Part shown: piece after piece, positions 110 through 12,122 of the stretch
Position numbering within the stretch: position 1 is the first letter of the stretch
How the letters are laid out: each line of letters begins with the position of its first letter
Assembly: GCA_043778225.1 (NCBI GenBank)
Contig: JAYWGM010000104.1
Span: 1 to 12,179 of the forward strand
Length of the DNA stretch: 12,179 nucleotides
Direction of reading: 5' to 3'
DNA from: Deinococcales bacterium
GTDB lineage: Bacteria; Deinococcota; Deinococci; Deinococcales; JAAFIG01
The notes under the pieces: model-generated
Seen by the model: the letters and a program-made list of their open reading frames with translations, nothing else
Told to the model about the DNA's origin: nothing
Databases searched by the model: none
Position numbers and translations under genes: made by a program

Positions 110-120
110 ACACGCTCTAA
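101..120. repeat. Probable right terminal inverted repeat of the IS5-family element (ends ~117) plus a TAA target site (118-120)
   Basis: ACTTTATAAACACGCTC overlaps the transposase stop; its reverse complement begins GAGCGTGTTTATAAAGT. A GAG-starting end with a TNA target is typical of the IS1031 group. The partner repeat is outside the window. Confidence 0.5.
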
Positions 121-153
121 AAGTACGCTCGTGTGACGCTGTATGAATAACCT
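121..153 (+). promoter_or_regulatory. Type B box (AAGTACGCTCGTGTGACG) + 9 nt + TAACCT -10-like hexamer
   Basis: 121-141 is identical to 2208-2228. ACGCT repeats with an 11-bp period (125, 136), TAACCT is at 148-153, and a GAGG ribosome-binding site at 161-164 precedes the ATG at 170. Confidence 0.65.
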
Positions 154-169
154 AAACCCAGAGGTGATT

Positions 170-301
170 ATGACCAAGGAAATTTTGACCGAAACTCGAG
201 CCAAATACGAGCCGCCGATTCTCGAGAAATTTGTTTTTATGGAAATTACAGGCATTAGTTTACCAGTCGGCACAAACATTCTCGAGGAGGAAAGCAAATG
301 A
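170..301 (+). CDS. 43-aa peptide 1 with lasso-leader-like YxxPxL motif: MTKEILTETRAKYEPPILEKFVFMEITGISLPVGTNILEEESK
   Basis: Hand translation. It has a GAGG ribosome-binding site, its stop overlaps the next start (ATGA 298-301), and its paralog at 2257-2388 shows synonymous differences. Confidence 0.8.
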   Translation: MTKEILTETRAKYEPPILEKFVFMEITGISLPVGTNILEEESK

Positions 302-2097
302 AGCATCTTCTCGTTTTACTTGGCATGACAGCTTTACTTGCCTGTCAGCAAAATCAGTTTTTGCCTGTGCCAACTCGAGTGCTGGGGGTTACTGCCTTGC
401 CATTTGGAGATTCTATTCGTTCCCAAGCAGCTATTGCCGATGCTCAGATTGCTTTTGTGCCGCTTGGACTGGCGAGTGTACTCGATGATGCTGCCTTTAA
501 CTCGCGGTTTATTCGCCGTAGTTTTAGGATTACCAACAATTCAGGTGGTATTCTCACCAACCTGATTTTCCATGCCTACAATGCCCCAGCCAACAGCCAA
601 GGCACAGCCTTAAAGGGCATCACGAATTTTGCTGGGCAACCTGTGCTTAATGCCCAAGAAGCCATTCCTAAGCACGGCATGACGGGCAATGCTTCGTTGA
701 TTGTTGACTCGAGTGCTGCCGATTTACAATTGTTTAGCGAAGCTACGGTTAATGCTGCTCAGACCGAGGCGACCAGTATTTTAGGCGCAAACGATTACTT
801 ATTGGCTTATGGTTTTTTGGTGCAGCAACGCAATGGCGATACCGATTTGGACAGTAACCCACGCACCATAGCGGCTGGTGAGACTGGCACAATTACGATT
901 TCGTATCAGTTGCCCAAAGACTCGAGCAATGCCTATTCGTTCGTGGCGACTTTTAGCCTTCGTACCACCAGCGATGTGGATTTGGTGCAAACCCAAGAAG
1001 AGCAATTGGCTGGTACAACCGCCGGACAACTCGGACTGATTAACTTTAATAAAGTGACTGTACCCGGTGGTCAGGCTTGCGGTATCGTCGGGTCTGGGAT
1101 AACGTTGCGGTTCTTAAATCAATTGCGAATTGCGGGTAAAGTTGGAGGGACTGGCTCAGATACAGCCACCTATGCTTTTAATACGCCAAGTGTTGATGCC
1201 ATTGTGCCAATTAGTTTTTCAACCGAGGCAGTCTTCCGCGAGACCGTTTTGAACGCACCAGACGGAACAGGCATTTGTTTTACACAAAGTTTTGATCTAA
1301 GATTCGCGCCAGTAATAACCTTGGCGAAGAACATCACCATTTATGGCGGCAATAAAACGCTTATTTCTGGCGGTCTTGTGAATCGAATTTTTGAGATTGC
1401 CAGTGGTTTTAAGGTTGCCTTGTACGGCTTTACCATCGCCAACGGTACAAGCAGTACCTCAGCCACAAATTTTGGCGGTGGAGCAATCAGCAACGCTGGT
1501 CACTTAACGCTGGGTGGAATGAAATTCAGTAACAACCGCTTTGCAGGACTTGACTTTGCCACAAGCCCCTTCACACCAGCCAAAGGCGGCGCAATTTATA
1601 ACACTGGGGTACTTAACATTGAGTACAGCGAATTAAAATCGAATACTGCCCAAGCAGGCAGAGGTGCGTTTGGCACGAATGCAATTCTAGGTAGTGGAGT
1701 ATCAGGAACCAATGGAGAACTTGGCGGGGCTGCCTCTGGTGGAGCGATTTTTAATGCAGGTACACTGCAAATAAACTCGAGCCAAGTCTCGGGTAATTCG
1801 GCTATCGGAGGTCGCGGTGGAATTGGTGGTCTCGGGACAACTGTTATTGATCCTAGTGACGGACCACCATTCTTTGGATTTTTGTGCAATGAGCCTTCAG
1901 GCGTTGGTGGGCTTGGTGGTAACGCCATTGGCGGTGGAATCTTCTCGAGTGCCGCCTTTACCAACAATGCCAATGTAACAACCAACACGGTAACAGCCGG
2001 AATTGGTGGTTTTGCTGGTGGACCAAATCCTTGTGCATCACCTGACACCAGTAAGGCGGCTTCTGGGACTGCCAGCAATCCCAATGTTGCACCTTAA
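298..2097 (+). CDS. Lipoprotein 1 (599 aa): shared N-terminal domain plus Gly-rich GGAI/Pmp-like beta-helix repeat domain
   Basis: Signal peptide with lipobox LLAC (Cys16) and a GAGGAGG ribosome-binding site. C-terminal repeats are GGGAISNAG, GGAIYNTG, GGAIFNAG and GGGIFSS, with an FSNN motif. Confidence 0.85.
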   Translation: MKHLLVLLGMTALLACQQNQFLPVPTRVLGVTALPFGDSIRSQAAIADAQIAFVPLGLASVLDDAAFNSRFIRRSFRITNNSGGILTNLIFHAYNAPANSQGTALKGITNFAGQPVLNAQEAIPKHGMTGNASLIVDSSAADLQLFSEATVNAAQTEATSILGANDYLLAYGFLVQQRNGDTDLDSNPRTIAAGETGTITISYQLPKDSSNAYSFVATFSLRTTSDVDLVQTQEEQLAGTTAGQLGLINFNKVTVPGGQACGIVGSGITLRFLNQLRIAGKVGGTGSDTATYAFNTPSVDAIVPISFSTEAVFRETVLNAPDGTGICFTQSFDLRFAPVITLAKNITIYGGNKTLISGGLVNRIFEIASGFKVALYGFTIANGTSSTSATNFGGGAISNAGHLTLGGMKFSNNRFAGLDFATSPFTPAKGGAIYNTGVLNIEYSELKSNTAQAGRGAFGTNAILGSGVSGTNGELGGAASGGAIFNAGTLQINSSQVSGNSAIGGRGGIGGLGTTVIDPSDGPPFFGFLCNEPSGVGGLGGNAIGGGIFSSAAFTNNANVTTNTVTAGIGGFAGGPNPCASPDTSKAASGTASNPNVAP

Positions 2098-2142
2098 TTT
2101 TTATGAGGCTACCCGCTCGAGCTTACGGCACTTGGCGCAGCG

Positions 2143-2174
2143 CGTAACGGCTCGTAACGGCGGCTGCGTAAACT
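2143..2174 (+). promoter_or_regulatory. Type A box (CGTAACG-GCT-CGTAACG) + 9 nt + TAAACT -10-like hexamer
   Basis: These 32 bp are identical to 5520-5551. The heptamer repeats with a 10-bp period and TAAACT is at 2169-2174. Confidence 0.65.
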
Positions 2175-2176
2175 TT

Positions 2177-2205
2177 AGGCACTCGAGAATCAGTCTCGAG
2201 TGCCT
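2177..2205. terminator. Perfect 12-bp stem-loop (AGGCACTCGAGA-atcag-TCTCGAGTGCCT); possible terminator or 5' hairpin
   Basis: Arms at 2177-2188 and 2194-2205 with a 5-nt loop. There is no good U-tract, so terminator function is uncertain. Confidence 0.45.
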
Positions 2206-2207
2206 TG

Positions 2208-2240
2208 AAGTACGCTCGTGTGACGCTGCACTAATAACCT
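2208..2240 (+). promoter_or_regulatory. Type B box + 9 nt + TAACCT -10-like hexamer
   Basis: The box is identical to 121-141, TAACCT is at 2235-2240, and AAACCCAGAGGT follows as in the first copy. Confidence 0.65.
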
Positions 2241-2256
2241 AAACCCAGAGGTAAGT

Positions 2257-2388
2257 ATGACAAAAGAAAAATCTGAAACTCGAGCCAAATACGAGCCGCC
2301 AATTCTCGAGCAGCAAGCAGCTTATGTGGTTTTGACGGGCATCAGTTTACCAATTGGTACAAACATTCTCGAGGAGGAAAGCGAATGA
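2257..2388 (+). CDS. 43-aa peptide 2 with lasso-leader-like YxxPxL motif: MTKEKSETRAKYEPPILEQQAAYVVLTGISLPIGTNILEEESE
   Basis: Hand translation. It has a GAGG ribosome-binding site, an ATGA overlap at 2385-2388 with lipoprotein 2, and is a paralog of 170-301. Confidence 0.8.
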   Translation: MTKEKSETRAKYEPPILEQQAAYVVLTGISLPIGTNILEEESE

Positions 2389-5300
2389 AAAAGTTTTTAC
2401 CAATTCCATTACTATTGTTTGCCTTGCTTGCCTGTCAGCAAACACAAGTCCAACCCATGACGCAAAACCTTGGCACACTCGAGTTGCGGCTTGATAATTC
2501 TGGAAGCACTAAAGGACAAGTGGCTCGAGTGAAAGTTTCGGGGCTACAAACCCAAGGGACGCTGCGTGAAGCCGATGTGACCTTTACAGCTTTGACGACC
2601 GTTGCCACACAAAACGATGGGGCGTTTGATTATGTACAAGCGCAGTTTAGCGTCTTAAACTCGAGCAGTACACCATTTGCTAATTTAACCTTGTACGCCG
2701 TTGCAAAGTCTGGCAACATTGCTGGTACAGCCATTAAAAGCATTACTAATTTTGGCGGACTTACCGATGTCAACGAGCAAACCCGAATTGCCAAGTTGGT
2801 CACGGCTACGCATGGCTTAAACATCTCGAGTACGGGTGCGAGTTTAATTTCTGGGCGTGAGGATATGCAGCTTTTTACGCCAAACGATGTGAATGCTTTA
2901 CAAGCTGACCCTGCTTTGACTTCAAACGGTTTCTCGAGCAACGATAAAGTGCTTGGCTATGGTTTTGTGGCGCGGCGTTGTGTTCCAAATTGCAGCAGTC
3001 CAACTTCGTTTGTTCGGAGTATTCCGGCTGGACAAAGTGGGTTAATCACGATAGCCCTCAGAATTCCACGCAGCAGTGGAACGGCGTACAACTTCATCAT
3101 GACTTTTGCGGTGGTGGATGAACCCATCAATCGAGTCACGCGCAGTGTGTACCCACCTGAAACCCTCAGCGATGCCGAAAGTCGTTTGGTTGGTTTTGGG
3201 GCAAGTTCGAGCAATGAAATCATGCAGTTGGGTTTGGCTCGAGCCACTACGCCAAGCAACAGTTATGTCAATCAAGGTACAGATTTTGTGGCGGTCTCGA
3301 GCAACTCAGAAGATTACACCGCACTTGGTTTGGGACGTTTAAGCAGTGGATTTGATCATTCTTGTGCTTTGACAGCCGTGGGTGCAGCCTATTGTTGGGG
3401 TGGAAATGGATTTGGACAATTGGGCAATAACAGCAAGGACGCAAGCAGCATTCCAGTGCCAGTTGCTGGAAATTTATTGTTCTCGAGTATCAGTGCTGGT
3501 GGCAATACAACCTGTGGTCTGATGCTGGCTGGTGCAGCCTATTGTTGGGGTAGCAATACCGACGGTGGTCTTGGTAATAACAGTCAAACCCAAAGTTTAA
3601 TCCCAGTACCTGTGAGCGGCGGTTTGGTGTTCTCGAGTATTGGGGTCGCTGATACGAATACTGTTTGTGGTTTGACGACTTTTGGTATAGTCGCTTGCTG
3701 GGGTAGTAATGATCGCCAGCAGCTGGGTTTTAACTCAACTGTTCCCAGAAGCCTTACCCCTGTGCTTGTGGCTGGAGGAAGCCAGTTATTCTCGAGCCTG
3801 AGCGTTGGTGGGGCGCATTCGTGCGGCTTGACCGCTTTGGGGGCGGCTTACTGCTGGGGGTTTAATGGCAGTGGGCAATTGGGGGTTGGTACATCTGGTA
3901 CAAACCTTGGGCAACCCACGTTGGTTGGCAATAGTTTAACTTTCTCGAGTATTTACACTGGAACGTACCAGACTTGTGCTTTAACTTCGGATGGTACTGC
4001 CTATTGCTGGGGTCGAAATGATTTTGGTCAACTTGGAACTGCTAACAACACCCAAAGTACCTCGCCGGTGCTGGTCAGTGGCAATCTGCGCTTCTCGAGG
4101 CTAGATGGTGGCGAACAACACACCTGTGGTTTAACCCCGACCAGCACCTTGTACTGTTGGGGTCGTAACAACAATGGCGAATTGGGTACGGGGAACACAA
4201 CCACTACCAATACACCCACTTTGGTTGGTGGTGGGCTGGTATTTGCTGGGTTTTCGACTGGCTGGTTTCACACTTGTGCCATCACCCCAACGGGTCTAAA
4301 GTATTGCTGGGGCAGCAATACAGCCGGGCAAATTGGTAATAACGCAATTTTTGATACCAAAGCACCACGACCAGTCTCTGGTAATCTGACCTTCTCGGGT
4401 GTTTATGCCAACGATAACCATAGCTGTGCTTTAACTTTACTCGACAAAGCCTATTGTTGGGGTACGAATGGCAGTGCGGGGTTACTTGGTAATAACAGCA
4501 CCGTCAATAGCCCAGTGCCTGTCGAAGTCTCGACCACCATAGAATTCTCGAGTTTAACCAGCAATGGCTTTAATCAAACTTGTGGCTTGCAAAAAACCAC
4601 GGGTTTGGCGTATTGCTGGGGGAGTAACACCTATGGTCAATTGGGTACAGGCAATACCACCCGAAGCCTGATACCTATAGCGGTGGTTGCACCAGTTGGA
4701 AGCAGCACCCCTTTGGCTTTCTCGAGTTTGGCGGCTGGCGATGACCACATTTGTGGTATCACCCCGACTCAGGATTTGTACTGCTGGGGTCGGGATAATT
4801 CTGGGCAACTTGGAGACGGGGGAACAAATACCGACAGCAGTCGCCCTGTTAAAATTGGCACGGCTTTTACGGCTGTGACTGGTGGTATAGCCCACACTTG
4901 TGCCATCAGCCCAAGCCCAAATCCGGGCAGTCTGTACTGCTGGGGTCAGAACCGTAGCGGACAACTTGGCGATGGTACAACCGTTGCCAAAAACATACCG
5001 ACGCTGATTGGTTCTGGTTTCTCGAGTGTCAGTGCTGGGAATGGACACACCTGCGCCATACAAACAATCAGTTCGGTAGCAACGACTGTCTGTTGGGGTC
5101 TGAACAGCTTTGGTCAATTGGGTACAGGCAATAACACCATAAGCCTGACCGCCACACCTGTTTCTGGTAATTTTGCTTTTAGCACGGTTGTTGTTGGCGA
5201 AAACCACACCTGTGGTTTACTGACCAATGGTACAGCTTACTGCTGGGGTGATAACGGAAACGGACAAATAGGGAACAACAACACAGTCAATGTCAACACG

Positions 5301-5486
5301 CCAGCTTTGGTCAGTGGCAACTTGAGTTTCTCGGGTTTAAGTGCTTCATGGAAAAATACTTGCGGCATAACCACCACAAATACAGCCTATTGCTGGGGCG
5401 ATAATATCAACGGAAAAATCGGCTTTGTGCTTCAAACCTTGTTCAGTACCCCAACTCGAGATATGGCTTTGAGTTTCAAGCTCTAA
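2385..5486 (+). CDS. Lipoprotein 2 (1033 aa): shared N-terminal domain plus 14 RCC1-type repeats (probably two 7-bladed propellers)
   Basis: Lipobox LLAC (Cys17). From about residue 316 to the end there are 14 repeats of the form HxC...YCWGxNxxGQLG...PxxV, counted by CWG. Confidence 0.92.
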   Translation: MKKFLPIPLLLFALLACQQTQVQPMTQNLGTLELRLDNSGSTKGQVARVKVSGLQTQGTLREADVTFTALTTVATQNDGAFDYVQAQFSVLNSSSTPFANLTLYAVAKSGNIAGTAIKSITNFGGLTDVNEQTRIAKLVTATHGLNISSTGASLISGREDMQLFTPNDVNALQADPALTSNGFSSNDKVLGYGFVARRCVPNCSSPTSFVRSIPAGQSGLITIALRIPRSSGTAYNFIMTFAVVDEPINRVTRSVYPPETLSDAESRLVGFGASSSNEIMQLGLARATTPSNSYVNQGTDFVAVSSNSEDYTALGLGRLSSGFDHSCALTAVGAAYCWGGNGFGQLGNNSKDASSIPVPVAGNLLFSSISAGGNTTCGLMLAGAAYCWGSNTDGGLGNNSQTQSLIPVPVSGGLVFSSIGVADTNTVCGLTTFGIVACWGSNDRQQLGFNSTVPRSLTPVLVAGGSQLFSSLSVGGAHSCGLTALGAAYCWGFNGSGQLGVGTSGTNLGQPTLVGNSLTFSSIYTGTYQTCALTSDGTAYCWGRNDFGQLGTANNTQSTSPVLVSGNLRFSRLDGGEQHTCGLTPTSTLYCWGRNNNGELGTGNTTTTNTPTLVGGGLVFAGFSTGWFHTCAITPTGLKYCWGSNTAGQIGNNAIFDTKAPRPVSGNLTFSGVYANDNHSCALTLLDKAYCWGTNGSAGLLGNNSTVNSPVPVEVSTTIEFSSLTSNGFNQTCGLQKTTGLAYCWGSNTYGQLGTGNTTRSLIPIAVVAPVGSSTPLAFSSLAAGDDHICGITPTQDLYCWGRDNSGQLGDGGTNTDSSRPVKIGTAFTAVTGGIAHTCAISPSPNPGSLYCWGQNRSGQLGDGTTVAKNIPTLIGSGFSSVSAGNGHTCAIQTISSVATTVCWGLNSFGQLGTGNNTISLTATPVSGNFAFSTVVVGENHTCGLLTNGTAYCWGDNGNGQIGNNNTVNVNTPALVSGNLSFSGLSASWKNTCGITTTNTAYCWGDNINGKIGFVLQTLFSTPTRDMALSFKL

Positions 5487-5519
5487 AGTGGTGCGAATCC
5501 TGCTCGAGGCTAAAACCCT

Positions 5520-5551
5520 CGTAACGGCTCGTAACGGCGGCTGCGTAAACT
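5520..5551 (+). promoter_or_regulatory. Type A box + 9 nt + TAAACT -10-like hexamer
   Basis: 32-bp exact copy of 2143-2174, with TAAACT at 5546-5551, upstream of lipoprotein 3. Confidence 0.65.
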
Positions 5552-5586
5552 CGAGCGATGTTGCTACGATACTCGAGGAGTAATTT

Positions 5587-8500
5587 ATGCTCATGAAACC
5601 TTTTTTACTTGTTCAAAGTGCTGTTTTTGTTGTTCTGGTCGGTTGTACGTCCATACCTACACCAGTCGATTCCAATGATAAAGTCCTCGGGCGGCTCGAG
5701 GTGGTTTTCTCGAGCGAAAGTGCAGCACCTAAAGCAGTGTTCTCGAGTGCCAAACTCGGTACGGCGGCGCTAACCGTGCAGCCAGAAGCATCGTTTACGT
5801 TTGTACCACCAACCAGTGTGCTGACTCGAGATGCGTCTGGTATTCGTACCCTTTCGGCAACTTTTGGAATTACTCAGACCAGTGGTAGCACCCTACAAAA
5901 TATCATGCTGGTGGCGTACAACCAAGCTGATAACAATGTTGGTGGAACTGCCGTGAAAAACATTTTTACCTTTGGCGGTTCTGCCTCGAGTAGCAACGCA
6001 CAGAGCATTAAACCAGCCCACGGAACGAATGGCTCGTTAGCGGTTGACCCTTTTCGGGCTGACATGGGTATTTTGTTACCACTCGAGGCAAATAATTTAA
6101 CAGTAGCGGCGCGTAATGCTGGTGTGATTGGCGCATCCGACACCGCCCTCGAGTACGGTTTTATTGCCCGTAGAAGTGCCACTTCGCACCTAAGAAGCAT
6201 TGCCAGTGGCAGCACAGGGCAAGTCACCTTGGCGGTACAGCTTCCTACAGCGCAAGATAATGCGCCAACCACTGCGCCGTATCGTTTTGCCTTGACTTTT
6301 ATTGTCACCACCGACGACACCGATATTGTTACCCAGTCACTCGAGGAGCAAAATAACGATGCCTTGGTTTCGGCTCGAATCGCTGCGATTGGTAAGAGTA
6401 CCACGGTGCGACTTTTGCGCGGCAGTTCTTTTACAGGACGACCACAACAACGCTTGTGTGGGACGCGCTTGGCAACTGGTAACGCGGCGTTCCTGACCGC
6501 CCCGAGTTTGGGTTTTCTGGGTGCGAGACTTAATCCAGACAGTACGTTAACGGCTGATTTCGATGCGCCGTTGGACTCGAGCAGTTTAGGAAATGGTTTG
6601 GTGATCCAGGGTTTACGAAGCGGTAAGCGCCTTGCGGGTCTGAGCTTGGTTGGTAACAGTGTCCAGTTTACACCAACCAGCCCCACCCAAGAATTCAGTC
6701 ATGGCGAGGAGGTGCTGCTGAGTGTTACCAATCAACTTCGCAGTGTCGAAGGTGGTCAGTTATGCGGACAACCAGCCCAAAGTAAATTGTTTCGCATGGA
6801 CTCGAGCCGCAAAGATCAGGTGCTGAGTTACCGCCGCCCAATCAAAATAGCCATGAATGCAGGTACGCTTGGTGGGCAACGAATCAGTGCTTTAGCTGAC
6901 CTGAACAACGACGGTAAAGCCGATTTGGTCACAATAAGTATGCTCGAGAGTAAAGTTTTTACACGCCTTGGTACGGGTTTGGATAATACTTATTTTGGAG
7001 CGCTGACCACAACCAACTTAATTGAGCGACCCAAAGATTTGGATATTGCCGATATGAACAGCGATAGTCTGTTGGATTTGGTGATTCACAATCTTGGCAG
7101 CCCAAGTTCGTTCAGTATTTTGCTTGGAAATGGGCTTGGGGGTTTCTCGAGCCTGACGACCTTTCCTTTGACTGGAACAGGTAATGAGGACGTTTTAGCG
7201 CTAGGTGATGTGACAGGCGATGGTAAACCCGATCTGGTCACACTTGAAAATACATCAATTCGCTTAGAACTTGTGGTTGTTACGCGGGCAAATAGCACCA
7301 TAGCTGGGGCTTTTATACCCACTTTTGGGGCAATTGGTAGACAAATCATTACGATAAATTCAACTACCAATACGTCCCCACCTTCACCACACCGGCTGGT
7401 CATTGATGACCTCGATTTGAACGGGGTTGCAGATACGATCATTGCAATACAAAAAACTTTTGAGGGAAATAATGATTTTACGCTGTTATACAAGTCAATG
7501 AATGGTGGTGCATTCCAATCGCTTGATGCTTTACAAAGTCAAAGCTGTACAATTGCTACAGCAAATTTAGATAACGACCCGCAAAAAGAAATTGGCTTCG
7601 CTTGCAATGGGCAAAACTCCGCCATTCGCTTTCCAAACAATAGTCTTACTTTGCTGCAAAAATCAAATTTGCTCATACTTGAAAACAGTGTATTTGCTGA
7701 CCTAAACGGCGATGGTAAAAAAGAATGGATTACGGTTGGTATCAACAATACCAGTACCTTGGCACAAAGTTCACTCGAGGTGCGTTACTCAGCCGAAGGG
7801 GGGTTATTTGGATTCAGCACCATGATTCCAGGTTTTCTTACCCCACAAGGAGATAATGGCAACCAAAATTTATTTGGGGTTGCTGCGGCTGACCTGAACG
7901 GCGATGGAAAATTAGAAATCGTGGCTGGTGACGATGACGCGGGCGCTCAGGTCTGGCGGCACGAAAAAATTGGTTCGTTCAGAAAAATTTCGGTCAGTGC
8001 ATTAAACCCTCGAGACATCATGGCGGCTGATTTAACCAACGATGGAAAAACCGATATTGCCGTGGCAAACGTACAAACCTCTGGTATTTACTTGCACCGA
8101 GGTACAGACAATGGTTTTGCAACCCAAGAATCCATTGCTGTTCAATCCAGTCAAGTGACCCTGGCTTCGGGTGATGCCAACAATGATGGTCGGGTAGATG
8201 CTTTTGTGGCTGCCGGTTTTGGCTTGGGAATTCAACTCTCGAGCAGGACAGGTGGTTTTACTGCGGGTACAGGTACAGCCGAATCTTTTACTATTCAAGG
8301 CTTAGCTGTCACAGACTTTAACAATGACGGTAATTTAGATGCAATTGTCAGTGGTTTTGGAACTGCGCCGCTTCGTATCCTGCTCGGTGATGGAACAGGT
8401 GCATTTACCACTGGAACAACCCAAGCCAGCACCGATGTCAGTCAATTGATGGTCGCCGACATCAACGCCGATGGCAATATGGACGTACTGGCATTACAAA

Positions 8501-8964
8501 GTACCCAAATCGCGGTGTTCTTAGGTTCAGGAGATGGTAATTTAACCCCTGCCACACCAATAACAACCACGGCTCGAGCCTTTGCTCTAACCGACATCAA
8601 CGCCGATAACACCCCTGATATTATTTACGCCACTGGTACAAACCTCGAGTACCGCTTAAATAGCGCACGTGTTTTCGGCAGTCCTCAAGTCATCAATAGC
8701 CCATTTCAACCTGTTACATCCAACAGCCTAGCCATTGGTGATTTTAACGGTGATGGTTTCAATGACTTGCTTGCTACCAATGGCAATAATGTCATGCTTT
8801 ATGGTGGGCTTTCGACAGGTGGTTTTGCCGTGTTTGCAACAGCTTCTGAGGCTGGTTTAAGCCCAAGCAAATTACAAGCTGCCGATATTAACCAAGATGG
8901 CTTACTAGATGCGTTTGTCACTAACATAACTGAAAATTCGATTACCTTGCTGCTCCGTTTCTAA
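5587..8964 (+). CDS. Lipoprotein 3 (1125 aa; start may be ATG 5593): shared N-terminal domain, Ig-like domain and 14 FG-GAP/VCBS repeats
   Basis: Lipobox LVGC. An Ig-like segment reads FDAPLDSSSL...VQFTPT...GEEVLLSVTNQLRS. Fourteen DxNxDGxxD-like motifs run from DLNNDGKAD to DINQDGLLD. Confidence 0.9.
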   Translation: MLMKPFLLVQSAVFVVLVGCTSIPTPVDSNDKVLGRLEVVFSSESAAPKAVFSSAKLGTAALTVQPEASFTFVPPTSVLTRDASGIRTLSATFGITQTSGSTLQNIMLVAYNQADNNVGGTAVKNIFTFGGSASSSNAQSIKPAHGTNGSLAVDPFRADMGILLPLEANNLTVAARNAGVIGASDTALEYGFIARRSATSHLRSIASGSTGQVTLAVQLPTAQDNAPTTAPYRFALTFIVTTDDTDIVTQSLEEQNNDALVSARIAAIGKSTTVRLLRGSSFTGRPQQRLCGTRLATGNAAFLTAPSLGFLGARLNPDSTLTADFDAPLDSSSLGNGLVIQGLRSGKRLAGLSLVGNSVQFTPTSPTQEFSHGEEVLLSVTNQLRSVEGGQLCGQPAQSKLFRMDSSRKDQVLSYRRPIKIAMNAGTLGGQRISALADLNNDGKADLVTISMLESKVFTRLGTGLDNTYFGALTTTNLIERPKDLDIADMNSDSLLDLVIHNLGSPSSFSILLGNGLGGFSSLTTFPLTGTGNEDVLALGDVTGDGKPDLVTLENTSIRLELVVVTRANSTIAGAFIPTFGAIGRQIITINSTTNTSPPSPHRLVIDDLDLNGVADTIIAIQKTFEGNNDFTLLYKSMNGGAFQSLDALQSQSCTIATANLDNDPQKEIGFACNGQNSAIRFPNNSLTLLQKSNLLILENSVFADLNGDGKKEWITVGINNTSTLAQSSLEVRYSAEGGLFGFSTMIPGFLTPQGDNGNQNLFGVAAADLNGDGKLEIVAGDDDAGAQVWRHEKIGSFRKISVSALNPRDIMAADLTNDGKTDIAVANVQTSGIYLHRGTDNGFATQESIAVQSSQVTLASGDANNDGRVDAFVAAGFGLGIQLSSRTGGFTAGTGTAESFTIQGLAVTDFNNDGNLDAIVSGFGTAPLRILLGDGTGAFTTGTTQASTDVSQLMVADINADGNMDVLALQSTQIAVFLGSGDGNLTPATPITTTARAFALTDINADNTPDIIYATGTNLEYRLNSARVFGSPQVINSPFQPVTSNSLAIGDFNGDGFNDLLATNGNNVMLYGGLSTGGFAVFATASEAGLSPSKLQAADINQDGLLDAFVTNITENSITLLLRF

Positions 8965-8969
8965 GTGGG

Positions 8970-9003
8970 TTCGTAACGCTTCGTAACGGCAGGAGCTTAT
9001 CTT
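8970..9003 (+). promoter_or_regulatory. Type A-like box (TTCGTAACG-C-TTCGTAACG) + 9 nt + TATCTT hexamer, oriented antisense to the regulator
   Basis: Direct repeat at 8970-8978 and 8980-8988. TANNNT at 8998-9003 has the same 9-nt spacing as the other five copies. Confidence 0.5.
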
Positions 9004-11846
9004 GTTTTTTTGGTCAGCATCGGCTCGAGTTTTGGTAAGCCTTGGGCAAAGGCAATCGCTTGGTCTACGCTCATGGCTTGCCCTTGTTGGTAGGCAGCCT
9101 CGGCTTTGGCTTGCCCTAGGGCAGTTCTGGCTTGGTTCTCGAGTTGCAAAAAATGCTGGTACTGATGCTCGGCAAGTGGTGAATCAAGGCGCTCGAGAGC
9201 GACTGTTGTTGCCCCAAAGAGTGTCAGGGCTTGGGCTTGGTAGCCTTGGCGAACCAGTGGTTGGGTCAAAACAAGCATGGCGTAAATGGCATCACGGTAA
9301 CGTCCATCGCGCAGGAGTGGCAGCGCCTCGAGCAGGTGTTGTTGGGCTAAAGCATCGTTGCCTTCGGCTATTGCAGCTTCGCCTAAGCCGTATAACGAAG
9401 CGCCGATGTTGGTTTGGTTGCCAAGCGCTCGGGTCAAGGACAGGCTTTGTTCGATCAATTGGTATTTTTCGGGGCTGGGTGGCAGGATGTCGGCAATGTT
9501 CTGCAAAGCAATGGCTTGTCCGTTGCGGTGTCCACAAATGTTGGCGCATTCAAGGCTCTGTTCAAAGTATTGCTTGGCAATTATTTTGTCGTTGCGGTCA
9601 CAGGCGATTCGTCCAAGGTCATTCAAGGTGTTGACCATGCCATGAACATCATTTTCTTGGCGTTGGATTTGTAGGGCTTGGCGGATGCGAATTTCGGCGG
9701 CTTGAAGTTGTCCGCGCATGATTGCATTTGCGCCCCACCACCCAAGGGCTTTGGCATGAAGCACAGGCTGGTCGAGTATCGAAAAAATTTTGATCGCATT
9801 CTCGAGGTGCTGACAGGCTCGGGAGTACAGTGCCAAAAAATCACCTTGGATACCCAATGCCAATTCGGCTCGAGCCAATAACAAGGCATCGCTGGGTGGT
9901 TGGTACTGGGCAATCGCGGTTTGAAGGGCGTTCCAGGCTTCAAGGGTGCGTGAACGCAAATGAAAATAGCGTGGTAAAGCTGCCAAGGTTCGCAACACCA
10001 AAGCAGGGTCGGTGTTGTATTCAAAGACCGCCATGATATTTTGGTGCTGACTGGTGACTTTGTTGAGCCAAGTGATTTGTTGCGGTCCGCCGCGCAGGGC
10101 TATTTCGGCTTGCTCGGCAAAATGGGCAAAATACTGGGCGTGTGTGCGTTGCAGCTTCTTCAAAGCTGGTTGCTCGAGTTTTTTAAGCGCATAAGTTTGT
10201 ACCAAAGGGTGCAGTTCGTAACGCCCTCCATGTTGATGCAGCAATGACCGTGCCAGCAAACCGAGCAGTGAACGCGCCGAGACCCCCATACCTTCAAGTG
10301 CGGCTGGTCGGTCAAAACCACCTTGGAAGACACTGATGGCGCTCAGGGTTTGGCGCAAGTCATCCTCGAGTAATTCCCATGAATGCTCAAAAACCGTGCG
10401 TAAAGACCGATGCGCCTCGGGAATTTCTGGCTCGTTGACCTCGAGCCATTCGGCATTGGCTTCTAAACCTTCAATCAAGGCTTCTAAACTCAGTTCGCCC
10501 AGCCAAGCGGCAGCCAGTTCTAACCCAAGTGGTAAACCCTGCACAAGTTGACAGATTCGTAAAATACCCGCCAAGGTGTTGGAGTTTAAGGTAAAACCAC
10601 CACGCCGCCGTGCCGCCCGTGCCACAAAAAGTTGTACTGCACTGGCAGCCCGAGCAGCTTCGAGGTCTGGGTTATCTGGGTAAGCCAATCCCCCTAAGGT
10701 CAATACCCATTCGTTGGGGATGTTCAAAGCCACTCGAGAAGTCAAAAGCAAAGTCAGTTGCGGGGCTGCTTCCAGCCAAGCATTGAGCGGTTCGGCAAGC
10801 CCACCAAGATGCTCGACGTTATCCAGCACCAAAAGGACACGACTTTCTTGGAAGTGTTGACCGATTTGTAACCACGGGCTACTGTCAGCCCGTAAGTTAA
10901 AGCCAAGCACAGCAGCGACTGCCAAAGGCACATCATCTGGGTTGCGAATATCGCGCAGGGTCAACCAAATGGCACGGTCAAATAGGTTTTTTTGCTGCTC
11001 GAGAATTTCTTTGGCAAGGGTGGTTTTGCCGATGCCACCGAGTCCACGCAACATCATTAAACGTGTGCCTGCCATAAATTGAGCGCCTATCTCGGCTTGT
11101 TCGGCTTGACGACCGACAAATCGCAAATTTGTATCTGGCTGTACTTGTCCTTTTAAGGTTGCAACCAGCGCCAGTGTTTCGGGTTGAGGTTCGACCCCTA
11201 AATCGGTGCGTAAACGCGCTTGAAACAATTCAAATTGGCGCAGCGCCACTTGGTTTGAGCCAAGCACTGTGGCGTGTTTGAGTAAGCCATGCAAGGCTTC
11301 TTCGTTGTATGGGTCAAGCTCGAGTAACTGCACCAATAAATTTGGCAAACTGGCATCTGGGCTTGAATCGAGTTCTTGGATTCGTCCAATCAGGGCTGTG
11401 CGCCAATCTTCATGCAGTGCGGCACGTTCGGTCTCGAGCCATGCTCCAAAAGCAGTCGGGGTTAAAAGCCCCTCGAGTAACGCACCGCCGTAGACCGCCA
11501 ATGCTTTTTGCCAATCGGCTTGACGAATCGCGGTTCTAAATTGGCTCACATCGGATGGCACACTTAAACGCAGTGCCTTGGTATTGCCCTCTATCGCCTT
11601 AGCCCACTTGAGGTTTTTAGAGCGGTGCAAAAGTTGCCGTAAATTATTACGAGCATCGGACTCGGGTACATCTGCCCATAAAAGCGTGGCGATTTCGGCA
11701 CGTTCGACCCAAGTTTCGGCTGCCGCCAAATAGGCGAATAACCACAGCATTGGGCTGGGTGGAATCGCTGTTTGATCAACCCAGCGTGCCGAACCCAACA
11801 AGCGCAAAGGCACGGCGGTCACAGGCAAAGCAAAAATCCCTGTCAT
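8997..11846 (-). CDS. AfsR/SARP-family large ATP-binding transcriptional regulator (wHTH + BTAD + NB-ARC-like P-loop + TPR repeats)
   Basis: wHTH motifs RAEIATLLW...NNLRQLLHR; BTAD motifs DVSQF...ALAVYGGALLEG...LELDPYNE...LGVEP; Walker A GLGGIGKT, Walker B LLVLDNVEH and GLPLGLELAA; C-terminal TPR-like helices. I placed the start at ATG 11846 because TATCGT lies 7 nt upstream. The open frame extends to 11912. Confidence 0.9.
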   Translation of the reverse strand: MTGIFALPVTAVPLRLLGSARWVDQTAIPPSPMLWLFAYLAAAETWVERAEIATLLWADVPESDARNNLRQLLHRSKNLKWAKAIEGNTKALRLSVPSDVSQFRTAIRQADWQKALAVYGGALLEGLLTPTAFGAWLETERAALHEDWRTALIGRIQELDSSPDASLPNLLVQLLELDPYNEEALHGLLKHATVLGSNQVALRQFELFQARLRTDLGVEPQPETLALVATLKGQVQPDTNLRFVGRQAEQAEIGAQFMAGTRLMMLRGLGGIGKTTLAKEILEQQKNLFDRAIWLTLRDIRNPDDVPLAVAAVLGFNLRADSSPWLQIGQHFQESRVLLVLDNVEHLGGLAEPLNAWLEAAPQLTLLLTSRVALNIPNEWVLTLGGLAYPDNPDLEAARAASAVQLFVARAARRRGGFTLNSNTLAGILRICQLVQGLPLGLELAAAWLGELSLEALIEGLEANAEWLEVNEPEIPEAHRSLRTVFEHSWELLEDDLRQTLSAISVFQGGFDRPAALEGMGVSARSLLGLLARSLLHQHGGRYELHPLVQTYALKKLEQPALKKLQRTHAQYFAHFAEQAEIALRGGPQQITWLNKVTSQHQNIMAVFEYNTDPALVLRTLAALPRYFHLRSRTLEAWNALQTAIAQYQPPSDALLLARAELALGIQGDFLALYSRACQHLENAIKIFSILDQPVLHAKALGWWGANAIMRGQLQAAEIRIRQALQIQRQENDVHGMVNTLNDLGRIACDRNDKIIAKQYFEQSLECANICGHRNGQAIALQNIADILPPSPEKYQLIEQSLSLTRALGNQTNIGASLYGLGEAAIAEGNDALAQQHLLEALPLLRDGRYRDAIYAMLVLTQPLVRQGYQAQALTLFGATTVALERLDSPLAEHQYQHFLQLENQARTALGQAKAEAAYQQGQAMSVDQAIAFAQGLPKLEPMLTKKTR

Positions 11847-11930
11847 TGAATCCACGATAATCAGTATGCAACTTTTGATCACTTTTGCCAAATACGATTG
11901 GCTTTGTGCCAATCCTCGGCTGGTGTCTAA

Positions 11931-11963
11931 AAGTACGTCCGTGTGACGCTCGAGCAGTAATTT
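11931..11963 (+). promoter_or_regulatory. Type B box variant (AAGTACGTCCGTGTGACG) + 9 nt + TAATTT -10-like hexamer
   Basis: 11931-11950 matches 121-140 at 18 of 20 positions. TAATTT is at 11958-11963 and an ATG at 11970 lies at leaderless distance. Confidence 0.6.
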
Positions 11964-12122
11964 ATGCGTATGAAGCCTTTTTTACGTGTTCAAAGTGCTG
12001 TTTTTGCTGTTCTGGTCGGTTGTACGTCCATGCCTACTACACCCGCGCCAGTTGAGTCTAGTCAAGTCCTCGGGCGGCTCGAGGTAGGGCAAACGCACCA
12101 AGTTGAGCTTGCTGTACCCTAA
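11964..12122 (+). pseudogene. IS-truncated fourth lipoprotein gene, paralog of the lipoprotein 3 N-terminus
   Basis: MRMKPFLRVQSAVFAVLVGCTSMPTTPAPVESSQVLGRLEV closely matches MLMKPFLLVQSAVFVVLVGCTSIPTPVDSNDKVLGRLEV. Similarity stops abruptly at ~12085 and the frame ends at TAA 12120-12122. Confidence 0.8.

Follow-up and report, generated by a model that had tools for sequence, protein, structure and literature searches.

The stretch of DNA analyzed here (the window) comprises the first 12,179 nucleotides (nt) of contig JAYWGM010000104.1 from a Deinococcales bacterium (assembly GCA_043778225.1). It contains three lipoprotein genes on the plus strand and one BTAD-NB-ARC-TPR regulator gene on the minus strand (Table 1). 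The three lipoproteins begin with a shared domain followed by different C-terminal cargo, and two of them are preceded by small peptide-encoding open reading frames (ORFs). This shared front end is an unnamed protein domain, centred on Deinococcota and found on many enzymes and binding modules. The finding is a new domain family of known fold class within an undescribed genetic partnership.

When the three N-termini were compared by pairwise local alignment, scores of 232-259 were obtained against shuffle means of 41-43 (Z 27.6-30.9; 300 shuffles per pair, maximum score 75). BLASTP among the three proteins gave E-values of 1e-20 to 9e-28 with 28-39 % identity in the N-termini alone. Chance similarity was ruled out by these shuffle scores and E-values, and homology of the three N-termini, and with it the shared domain, is confirmed at the sequence level. 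A previous sequence-only reading had proposed the domain from collinear motifs; all 18 of them were found, in the same order in each lipoprotein ORF, spanning 601-954 in gene 1, 2724-3107 in gene 2 and 5944-6300 in gene 3. A lipobox Cys is present in every ORF (LLAC, nt 343; LLAC, nt 2433; LVGC, nt 5644).

Table 1 Features of the window (nt positions)
Feature	Position	Strand	Remarks
Upstream repeat, two ACGCT-like units 11 bp apart	116-140	+	Copies at 2203-2227 and 11926-11950
Peptide ORF 1, 43 amino acids (aa), YxxPxL leader, conserved core Ser	170-301	+	Stop overlaps start of gene 1
Lipoprotein 1 (gene 1), 599 aa; signal peptide II, shared domain, GG[AG]I-repeat cargo	298-2097	+	
Shared domain copy A, long form	343-1203	+	LxxQA loop at 415-429
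Intergenic TAACG tandem repeat	2143-2174	+	Copies at 5520-5551 and 8972-9003
Peptide ORF 2, 43 aa	2257-2388	+	Stop overlaps start of gene 2
Lipoprotein 2 (gene 2), 1033 aa; shared domain, RCC1 repeats	2385-5486	+	
Shared domain copy B, long form	2433-3329	+	LxxQG loop at 2544-2558
Lipoprotein 3 (gene 3), 1125 aa; shared domain, FG-GAP repeats	5587-8964	+	Without own upstream peptide ORF
Shared domain copy C, long form	5644-6510	+	Loop at 5755-5769, Ala replaces Gln; core end ~6321
BTAD-NB-ARC-TPR (SARP/AfsR-like) transcriptional regulator	8997-11912	-	
Remnant of gene-3-like lipoprotein, 52 codons; signal peptide, lipobox, first strand, then stop	11964-12122	+	92 % over 89 nt

Domain boundaries and fold

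The domain starts at the lipobox Cys and consists of a core of ~225 aa, to which a long form adds an extension of 60-70 aa. Profiles of the short and long forms aligned up to residue 226 (hhalign 99.86 %, E-value 2e-31), and the short form in Deinococcus ends after ~225-245 aa. Therefore, the length of ~230 aa given in the sequence-only reading describes the universal core (~225-235 aa) well and is too short for the window copies, which carry the further 60-70 aa and belong to the long form (~290-310 aa).

AlphaFold2 models were obtained for the long form, represented by window copy C (73 rows; predicted local distance difference test, pLDDT, 85), and for a short-form member from stretch L078 (42 rows; pLDDT 90). 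Both models consist of an ordered N-terminal hairpin, a low-confidence loop and then a beta-sandwich. When the models were compared with known structures, 7dda was the top neighbour of both, with Z 7.0 (root mean square deviation, rmsd, 4.0; 117 aligned residues) and Z 6.4 (rmsd 4.0; 119 aligned), and no listed row stood out. The lipoprotein SadB was a neighbour of both models (Z 4.9 and 5.8), and modules of the type of carbohydrate-binding module family 2 (CBM2) were also listed. The predicted fold class is an immunoglobulin (Ig)-like beta-sandwich, and no family is assignable at these scores because the Z values lie in the range of a common arrangement.

The earlier inability to name a family was borne out by the profile searches. 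Nothing above cut-off was found for the domain in Pfam, NCBIfam or PHROG, and the PDB sequence search gave no match. Foldseek on the isolated domain returned nothing at E ≤0.001 for either model; no type V pilin was among the rows listed, which does not exclude one. The Atlas matches were all below 0.9 and without a name. The DUF5067 profile reached 21.3 bits against a cut-off of 27 in one of 22 members, and in a second scan one of 42 members at an E-value of 0.044.

A similar arrangement is that of the small lipoprotein Ig domains SadB (4c47), YjhA (3cfu), 3qfg and YcdA (4r4g), in which a beta-sandwich also directly follows the lipobox (Z 3.3-5.8, rmsd 3.6-4.1 over 104-118 residues). For 3cfu, 3qfg and 4r4g, of the MPT63-like DUF4352/DUF5067 group, Z was 3.3-4.8. 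However, about half of the domain aligns, with large insertions and below the Pfam cut-off, and variable cargo is absent from those proteins.

These neighbours bear on one alternative, in which the domain serves passively as a stalk or binds glycans as a tether (CBM2/CBM3- or DUF4352-like), keeping the cargo at a distance from the membrane, and the peptide gene is only a co-regulated or cis-acting leader. We regard it as unlikely. CBM2/CBM3 modules and the small lipoprotein Ig domains are its fold neighbours (Z 3.3-5.8), the weak Atlas leads CHB_HEX and CBM_3 (0.76-0.78) and the below-cut-off DUF5067 match agree with it, and the nucleotidyltransferase-B2 fusion of this genome (see below) is encoded among polysaccharide genes. 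However, such Z values are at the level of the common arrangement, and a stalk leaves the position-dependent LxxQ loop, the stand-alone copies and the peptide-enzyme co-occurrence described below unexplained.

His126, Asp140, Gln142, Arg184 and Arg245, polar residues that the long form conserves, are not conserved in the short form. The idea that the PxH/DxQ residues form the basis of a catalytic or ester-bond domain was disfavoured, as the short form is without them.

Family size and cargo

An iterated profile found 22 copies of the domain in this genome, of which 20 begin at a lipobox-type Cys, one is truncated by a contig end and one is C-terminal (contig C63). Profile matches amounted to 839 clusters at 50 % identity (526 with E ≤1e-30), a large unannotated family that heads many Deinococcota surface proteins, including an extracellular nuclease on Deinococcus radiodurans MP1. 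Among 201 genomes of the phylum, the domain was present in 59, and in 60 when a second profile was used. Those members that have names come from Deinococcus and Meiothermus and are mostly labelled 'hypothetical', and two members are annotated outside the phylum (Longimicrobiales and Gemmatimonadaceae). A set of 146 representatives showed the lipobox pattern in 112, two domain copies in three and fewer than 40 aa after the domain in 13, some of which may be fragments. Some stand-alone members (P0120, P0132 and P0162) end in a Trp-spaced tail whose last residues are WR or WQ and which may serve in sorting or binding.

When 60 of the 146 representatives were scanned against Pfam, 23 cargo families were found, including propellers, LamG, nuclease, M8 peptidase, GDSL lipase and metallophosphatase. 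Cargo across the family includes FG-GAP, RCC1, DUF5122, LamG, P-domain, nuclease, protease and lipase domains; P-domain, LTD and an ExeM-type nuclease are added by the other 19 paralogs of this genome. Gene 1 gave no Pfam match, and its GG[AG]I repeats presumably form a beta-helix. Thus, the description of the cargo as binding domains holds in part, and enzymes have to be added.

In the tree of the 22 paralogs, FG-GAP cargo requires at least four changes on well-supported branches. Cargo is still clustered on the tree (11 changes against 13.8 when shuffled, 2/200), a test in which four of the five 'helix' labels were our own reading. Because the tree needs several changes of cargo, the cargo must have been swapped repeatedly in evolution, and the proposed common module with interchangeable cargo stands. 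The same comparison gave no sign pointing to an active cassette switch.

Cargo related to that of the domain-bearing MP1 protein DR_RS15800 was found in locus L132, where it follows a lipobox directly and both domain and peptide are absent, and in locus L130 behind a different N-terminal domain. Since the same cargo can sit directly behind a lipobox without the domain, basic anchoring or export, one of the roles suggested in the sequence-only reading, is unlikely to be the domain's job.

The LxxQ loop and the probable display of cargo

In both models the loop of low confidence lies between high-confidence strands. The motif [LIVM]xxQ[ASGT] was found in this loop in 13 of 17 family lipoproteins (shuffle mean 4.5, maximum 9) and in 75 of 131 representatives (shuffle mean 33). 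Of the 42 rows of the alignment centred on the short form, 40 keep the Gln; among the 73 long-form rows, a looser Gln motif is found in 50. The motif is absent from all three internal second copies and from the C-terminal copy on contig C63; it therefore goes with the lipid-proximal position. A conserved, exposed motif found solely beside the lipid anchor is what a processing site would be expected to look like. The motif was also retained in all seven checked members for which no upstream peptide was found.

The domain very probably acts as a surface display module for envelope lipoproteins. Our favoured reading, which we hold tentatively, is a lipid-tethered display-and-release module that is cut at the loop and whose cargo is held by the anchored hairpin. 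Sec export and lipidation would come first, and a secreted protease, most likely of the subtilase type, would then nick the LxxQ[AGST] loop; on balance, we consider this cleavage slightly favoured. After the nick, the cargo would stay non-covalently held by the lipid-anchored hairpin and, on a trigger, be released or passed to another envelope layer. Such nicked-but-tethered release is plausible, and we are less sure of it than of the cut itself.

Several observations weigh against this reading. Window copy C and several other members have Ala or Leu at the Gln position, and the loose loop motif occurs in 29 of 108 non-family lipoproteins (mean 18, maximum 29), a mild excess. Among the S8-like proteases of this genome, the motif was found at the prodomain junction in one of eight (shuffle P 0.38). 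The packing of the hairpin was read from confidence and secondary structure only, not from coordinates. In addition, the domain is not needed for the same cargo to work as a lipoprotein, as in L132 and in DR_A0282, which is placed in the cell wall in passages of PMC6300522. Finally, display and release alone do not explain the pairing with peptide genes described below.

Two candidate roles of the loop were rejected: a general S8 junction motif (one of eight, not significant) and a substrate Gln for a B2 transglutaminase-like domain, which was disfavoured since the loop persists in genomes without a match to the B2 fusion. One S8 protease in locus L130 does carry the loop motif at its prodomain junction. 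The lipoprotein at L130:802-3903 begins with the different, unannotated N-terminal domain, which has a first strand and LxxQG and heads DR_A0282-like cargo; it is possibly a second family using the same loop.

The layout of lipobox, hairpin and loop also parallels that of the type V pilins of Bacteroidota (FimA/Mfa1), which are likewise lipoprotein precursors with an N-terminal hairpin, an exposed candidate protease loop and cargo-bearing and cargo-free copies per operon. If the domain were a pilin-like subunit, stand-alone copies would polymerise by strand exchange after cleavage of the loop, and the fibre would be tipped by cargo copies, as in type V pili. This is quite improbable. Many loci of one genus (g7) do have a domain-only lipoprotein of ~350 aa directly upstream of a domain-plus-cargo gene, and a family gene lies directly upstream of 16 of 56 domain genes. 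However, stand-alone copies are few (one of 22 in this genome; 13 of 146 representatives with fewer than 40 aa after the domain), and they end near the point where cargo begins in other copies, with no obvious extra donor strand. The domain is modelled as a single Ig-like core and not as a two-domain pilin fold, has Gln in place of Arg at the candidate site, lacks an evident C-terminal donor strand and carries enzymes among its cargo. None of the FimA and Mfa profiles matched among the 22 and 42 members scanned against Pfam to E 1. Thus, of the earlier analogy to pilin tips, the layout (including stand-alone genes upstream of cargo-bearing ones) was retained, and no pilin profile or clear pilin fold match accompanies it.

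Upstream peptide genes and candidate modification enzymes

The upstream peptide genes, absent from the sequence-only reading, are the strongest functional clue. A peptide pattern was derived from the small ORFs that precede family genes, so only its specificity is informative. Of the 18,744 small ORFs of the genome it matched 15 (0.05 after shuffling), and in 12 of these cases a family gene follows directly, mostly with its start overlapping the stop of the peptide ORF. The remaining three lie before another peptide that itself precedes a family gene, after a family gene and before a non-family lipoprotein. This last lipoprotein (G000:C75:41624-42480, L095) has the loop motif and a weak glycoside hydrolase 99 match, and is divergent from a BTAD regulator.

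The peptide leader has the lasso spacing YxxPxL...T. Its Tyr and Pro are invariant in all 39 aligned peptides, a set partly selected on that motif, and NF033521 matched three of the 39 (best E-value 3.5 × 10−4). The putative acceptor column close to the start of the core contains 32 Ser, six Thr and one Arg. The peptide has no signal sequence.

In other genomes, a domain gene was found directly downstream in 26 of the 30 best peptide loci. Seen from the domain side, 56 genes had enough upstream DNA; in 19 of these a peptide ORF lies directly upstream, and in 16 another family gene does. The same pairing is found again in L165 and L166, whose relatives are annotated as Gemmatimonadota. No domain match was found in any of 12 peptide loci chosen for having no downstream domain gene. 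Neither the domain nor its pairing with the peptide was found described in the open-access literature.

In most family operons the first gene is such a small precursor gene of the lasso type; also encoded in these genomes are a recognition element (RRE) for peptides that are made on the ribosome and modified after translation (RiPPs), a probable HprK-like kinase and a nucleotidyltransferase-B2 fusion. In this genome, the fusion (NTP_transf_5 + Transglut_core3/B2) is encoded among polysaccharide genes on contig C44, and PqqD, the discrete RRE, on contig C64 beside the probable kinase. The gene adjoining pqqD gave sub-threshold matches only (ScmC, E-value 2e-4; HprK_rel_B, E-value 0.04). These enzymes would make a linear, Ser-phosphorylated peptide that accompanies or controls the lipoproteins.

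Among the 201 genomes, the domain was found in 60, the peptide in 50, the fusion in 52 and all three in 43; such tables are inflated by kinship, as related genomes are not independent samples. In genus g7, all three parts are present in 35 of 83 genomes and none in 39, and peptide and fusion agree in 82. In 46 genomes the distance from the best fusion match to a peptide was checked, and in 30 of them it was no more than 10 kb (coordinates copied by hand). No peptide match was found in 15 of the 60 domain-positive genomes, and therefore the domain can exist alone; a B2-fusion match was lacking in 15 of the 60.

A separate, complete lasso-type cluster is present in this genome (G000:C92:39625-46219), with B2, PqqD, cyclase, PqqD-fused methyltransferase-like, glycosyltransferase-like and kinase-like genes. 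On Deinococcus plasmids (L057:8507-15967 and L058:8418-18272), peptide, domain-only and domain-plus-cargo genes are followed by two or three tail-collar ('tail fiber') genes and a binding-protein-like gene, with a GNAT gene also in L057. Tail-collar genes after family operons were not found in the present genome, which is 89 % complete.

The closest peptide system is that of the linear polyphosphorylated peptides (LPPs) of Bacillota, which are phosphorylated at Ser3 and for which parts of PMC13381572 give the function as unknown. As described there, LPPs share the YxxP leader, an RRE that is discrete, a kinase resembling HprK (probable here) and a nucleoside triphosphate (NTP) transferase (uncharacterised in LPPs), as well as the lack of a cyclase, a Ser near the core start and a link to polysaccharide loci. 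In contrast, the peptidase here is a lasso B2 domain fused to a nucleotidyltransferase, whereas LPPs use SpI; the MP1 stretch has no annotated MsbA-like exporter, and the precursors are scattered and paired with lipoprotein genes. Neither 'Deinococ' nor 'lipoprotein' occurs in the main text of PMC13381572.

The peptide pairing raises another explanation, namely that the modified peptide has the domain as its receptor or partner. A pathway of the lasso type but without a cyclase (RRE, kinase and nucleotidyltransferase-B2 fusion) would make the domain's dedicated partner, and the matured core would bind the domain and control folding, anchoring or release of the cargo. The core, xS[LV]P[IV]G with its Ser phosphorylated and possibly nucleotidylated or glycosylated, might act as an added or exchanged beta-strand, and binding or exchange with the lipid-anchored strand would decide whether surface enzymes and adhesins are tethered or released. 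We consider the receptor role rather unlikely, and the pathway with its switch equally so. The gene order (12 of 15 peptide ORFs here, 26 of 30 top loci elsewhere), its recurrence in L165 and L166 and the all-or-none pattern in genus g7 (35 and 39 of 83) argue for it, and by eye the peptide core resembles the first strand of the domain in some members. In L132, where the same cargo stands without the domain, the locus likewise contains no peptide gene; here, in a single case, the peptide follows the domain and not the cargo. The main difficulty is topology: the domain is extracytoplasmic, whereas the peptide lacks a signal sequence and the MP1 stretch has no annotated exporter. Moreover, part of the domain-positive genomes gave no match (15 of 60 for the peptide, 15 of 60 for the fusion), some cores measure 3-8 residues, some peptides lie away from family genes, the long-form polar residues are not conserved in the short form and related genomes are not independent.

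If true, the partner-peptide pathway would represent a RiPP acting as a protein-display or release factor. The pairing itself hints at an unstudied way to display and release surface proteins. Orphan RRE/kinase/nucleotidyltransferase/B2 cassettes, whose products have no known role, are tied to defined partner genes in a genetically tractable organism.

The cluster on Deinococcus radiodurans MP1

On the D. radiodurans plasmid MP1 (NC_000958), all parts lie within ~15 kb, which makes the partner pathway testable in this species: three domain-bearing lipoprotein genes, two peptide ORFs, the fusion, pqqD, the hypothetical gene adjoining pqqD and an S8 protease gene. The domain was detected in the nuclease DR_RS15795 (a divergent copy at its start; E-value 4e-17), in DR_RS15800 (E-value 1e-22), which is followed by the S8 protease gene, and in DR_RS15785 (E-value 4e-15). 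The short form stands at the start of both the ExeM/NucH nuclease and the neighbouring Ig-domain protein, and a peptide ORF precedes each of the two genes. A similar gene set is present on a plasmid of Deinococcus sp. QL22. No asparagine-synthetase-like cyclase is annotated in the MP1 or QL22 stretches, nor is an SpI-type leader peptidase or an MsbA-like transporter, for which no genome-wide search was made; the B2 fusion is present there instead. A chaperone-usher-like gene set (L086:1059-5006) adjoins the MP1 cluster.

From its product and replicon, DR_RS15795 is probably DRB0067. In passages of PMC3554781, DRB0067 is described as dependent on Sec, attached to the hexagonal layer and set free after irradiation. 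The display-and-release reading would offer a testable route for this old observation of an envelope-bound nuclease that is set free. The 625-aa lipoprotein DR_A0281/0282 is reported in passages of PMC6300522 as a homologue of DR_B0068 located in the cell wall, and parts of PMC9189128 and PMC8779699 list DR_A0281-A0283 as S-layer complex subunits. The passages of PMC3554781 and PMC6300522 describe the nuclease, its signal peptide and C-terminal domains; the shared domain, the peptides and the neighbouring RiPP enzymes do not appear in them. Six supplementary files of a small-ORF proteomics study (PMC9650054) contained none of four short motifs taken from the two MP1 peptides, a weak negative as short peptides are easily missed.

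Other features of the window

Promoter and terminator scans of the window gave results at background level. ACGCT-type repeat sites occur ten times in the genome, three of them directly upstream of family genes, and are candidate regulator sites. For the TAACG tandem repeats (units 10-11 bp apart), the genome has 11 matches, seven of which are no more than 230 nt away from a family gene, and matches are also found on contigs C17, C28 and C90; their spacing resembles that of winged-helix regulator sites. A general linkage of family genes to BTAD regulators was unsupported (three of 21 within 5 kb against a random mean of 1.0, P ~0.07).

An upstream repeat and a 52-codon gene-3-like remnant lie together at 11926-12122, divergent from the BTAD regulator; this region suggests a decayed duplicate. 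Finally, CTCGAG occurs 24,877 times in the whole genome against ~931 expected by base composition, and each window peptide ORF contains three copies.

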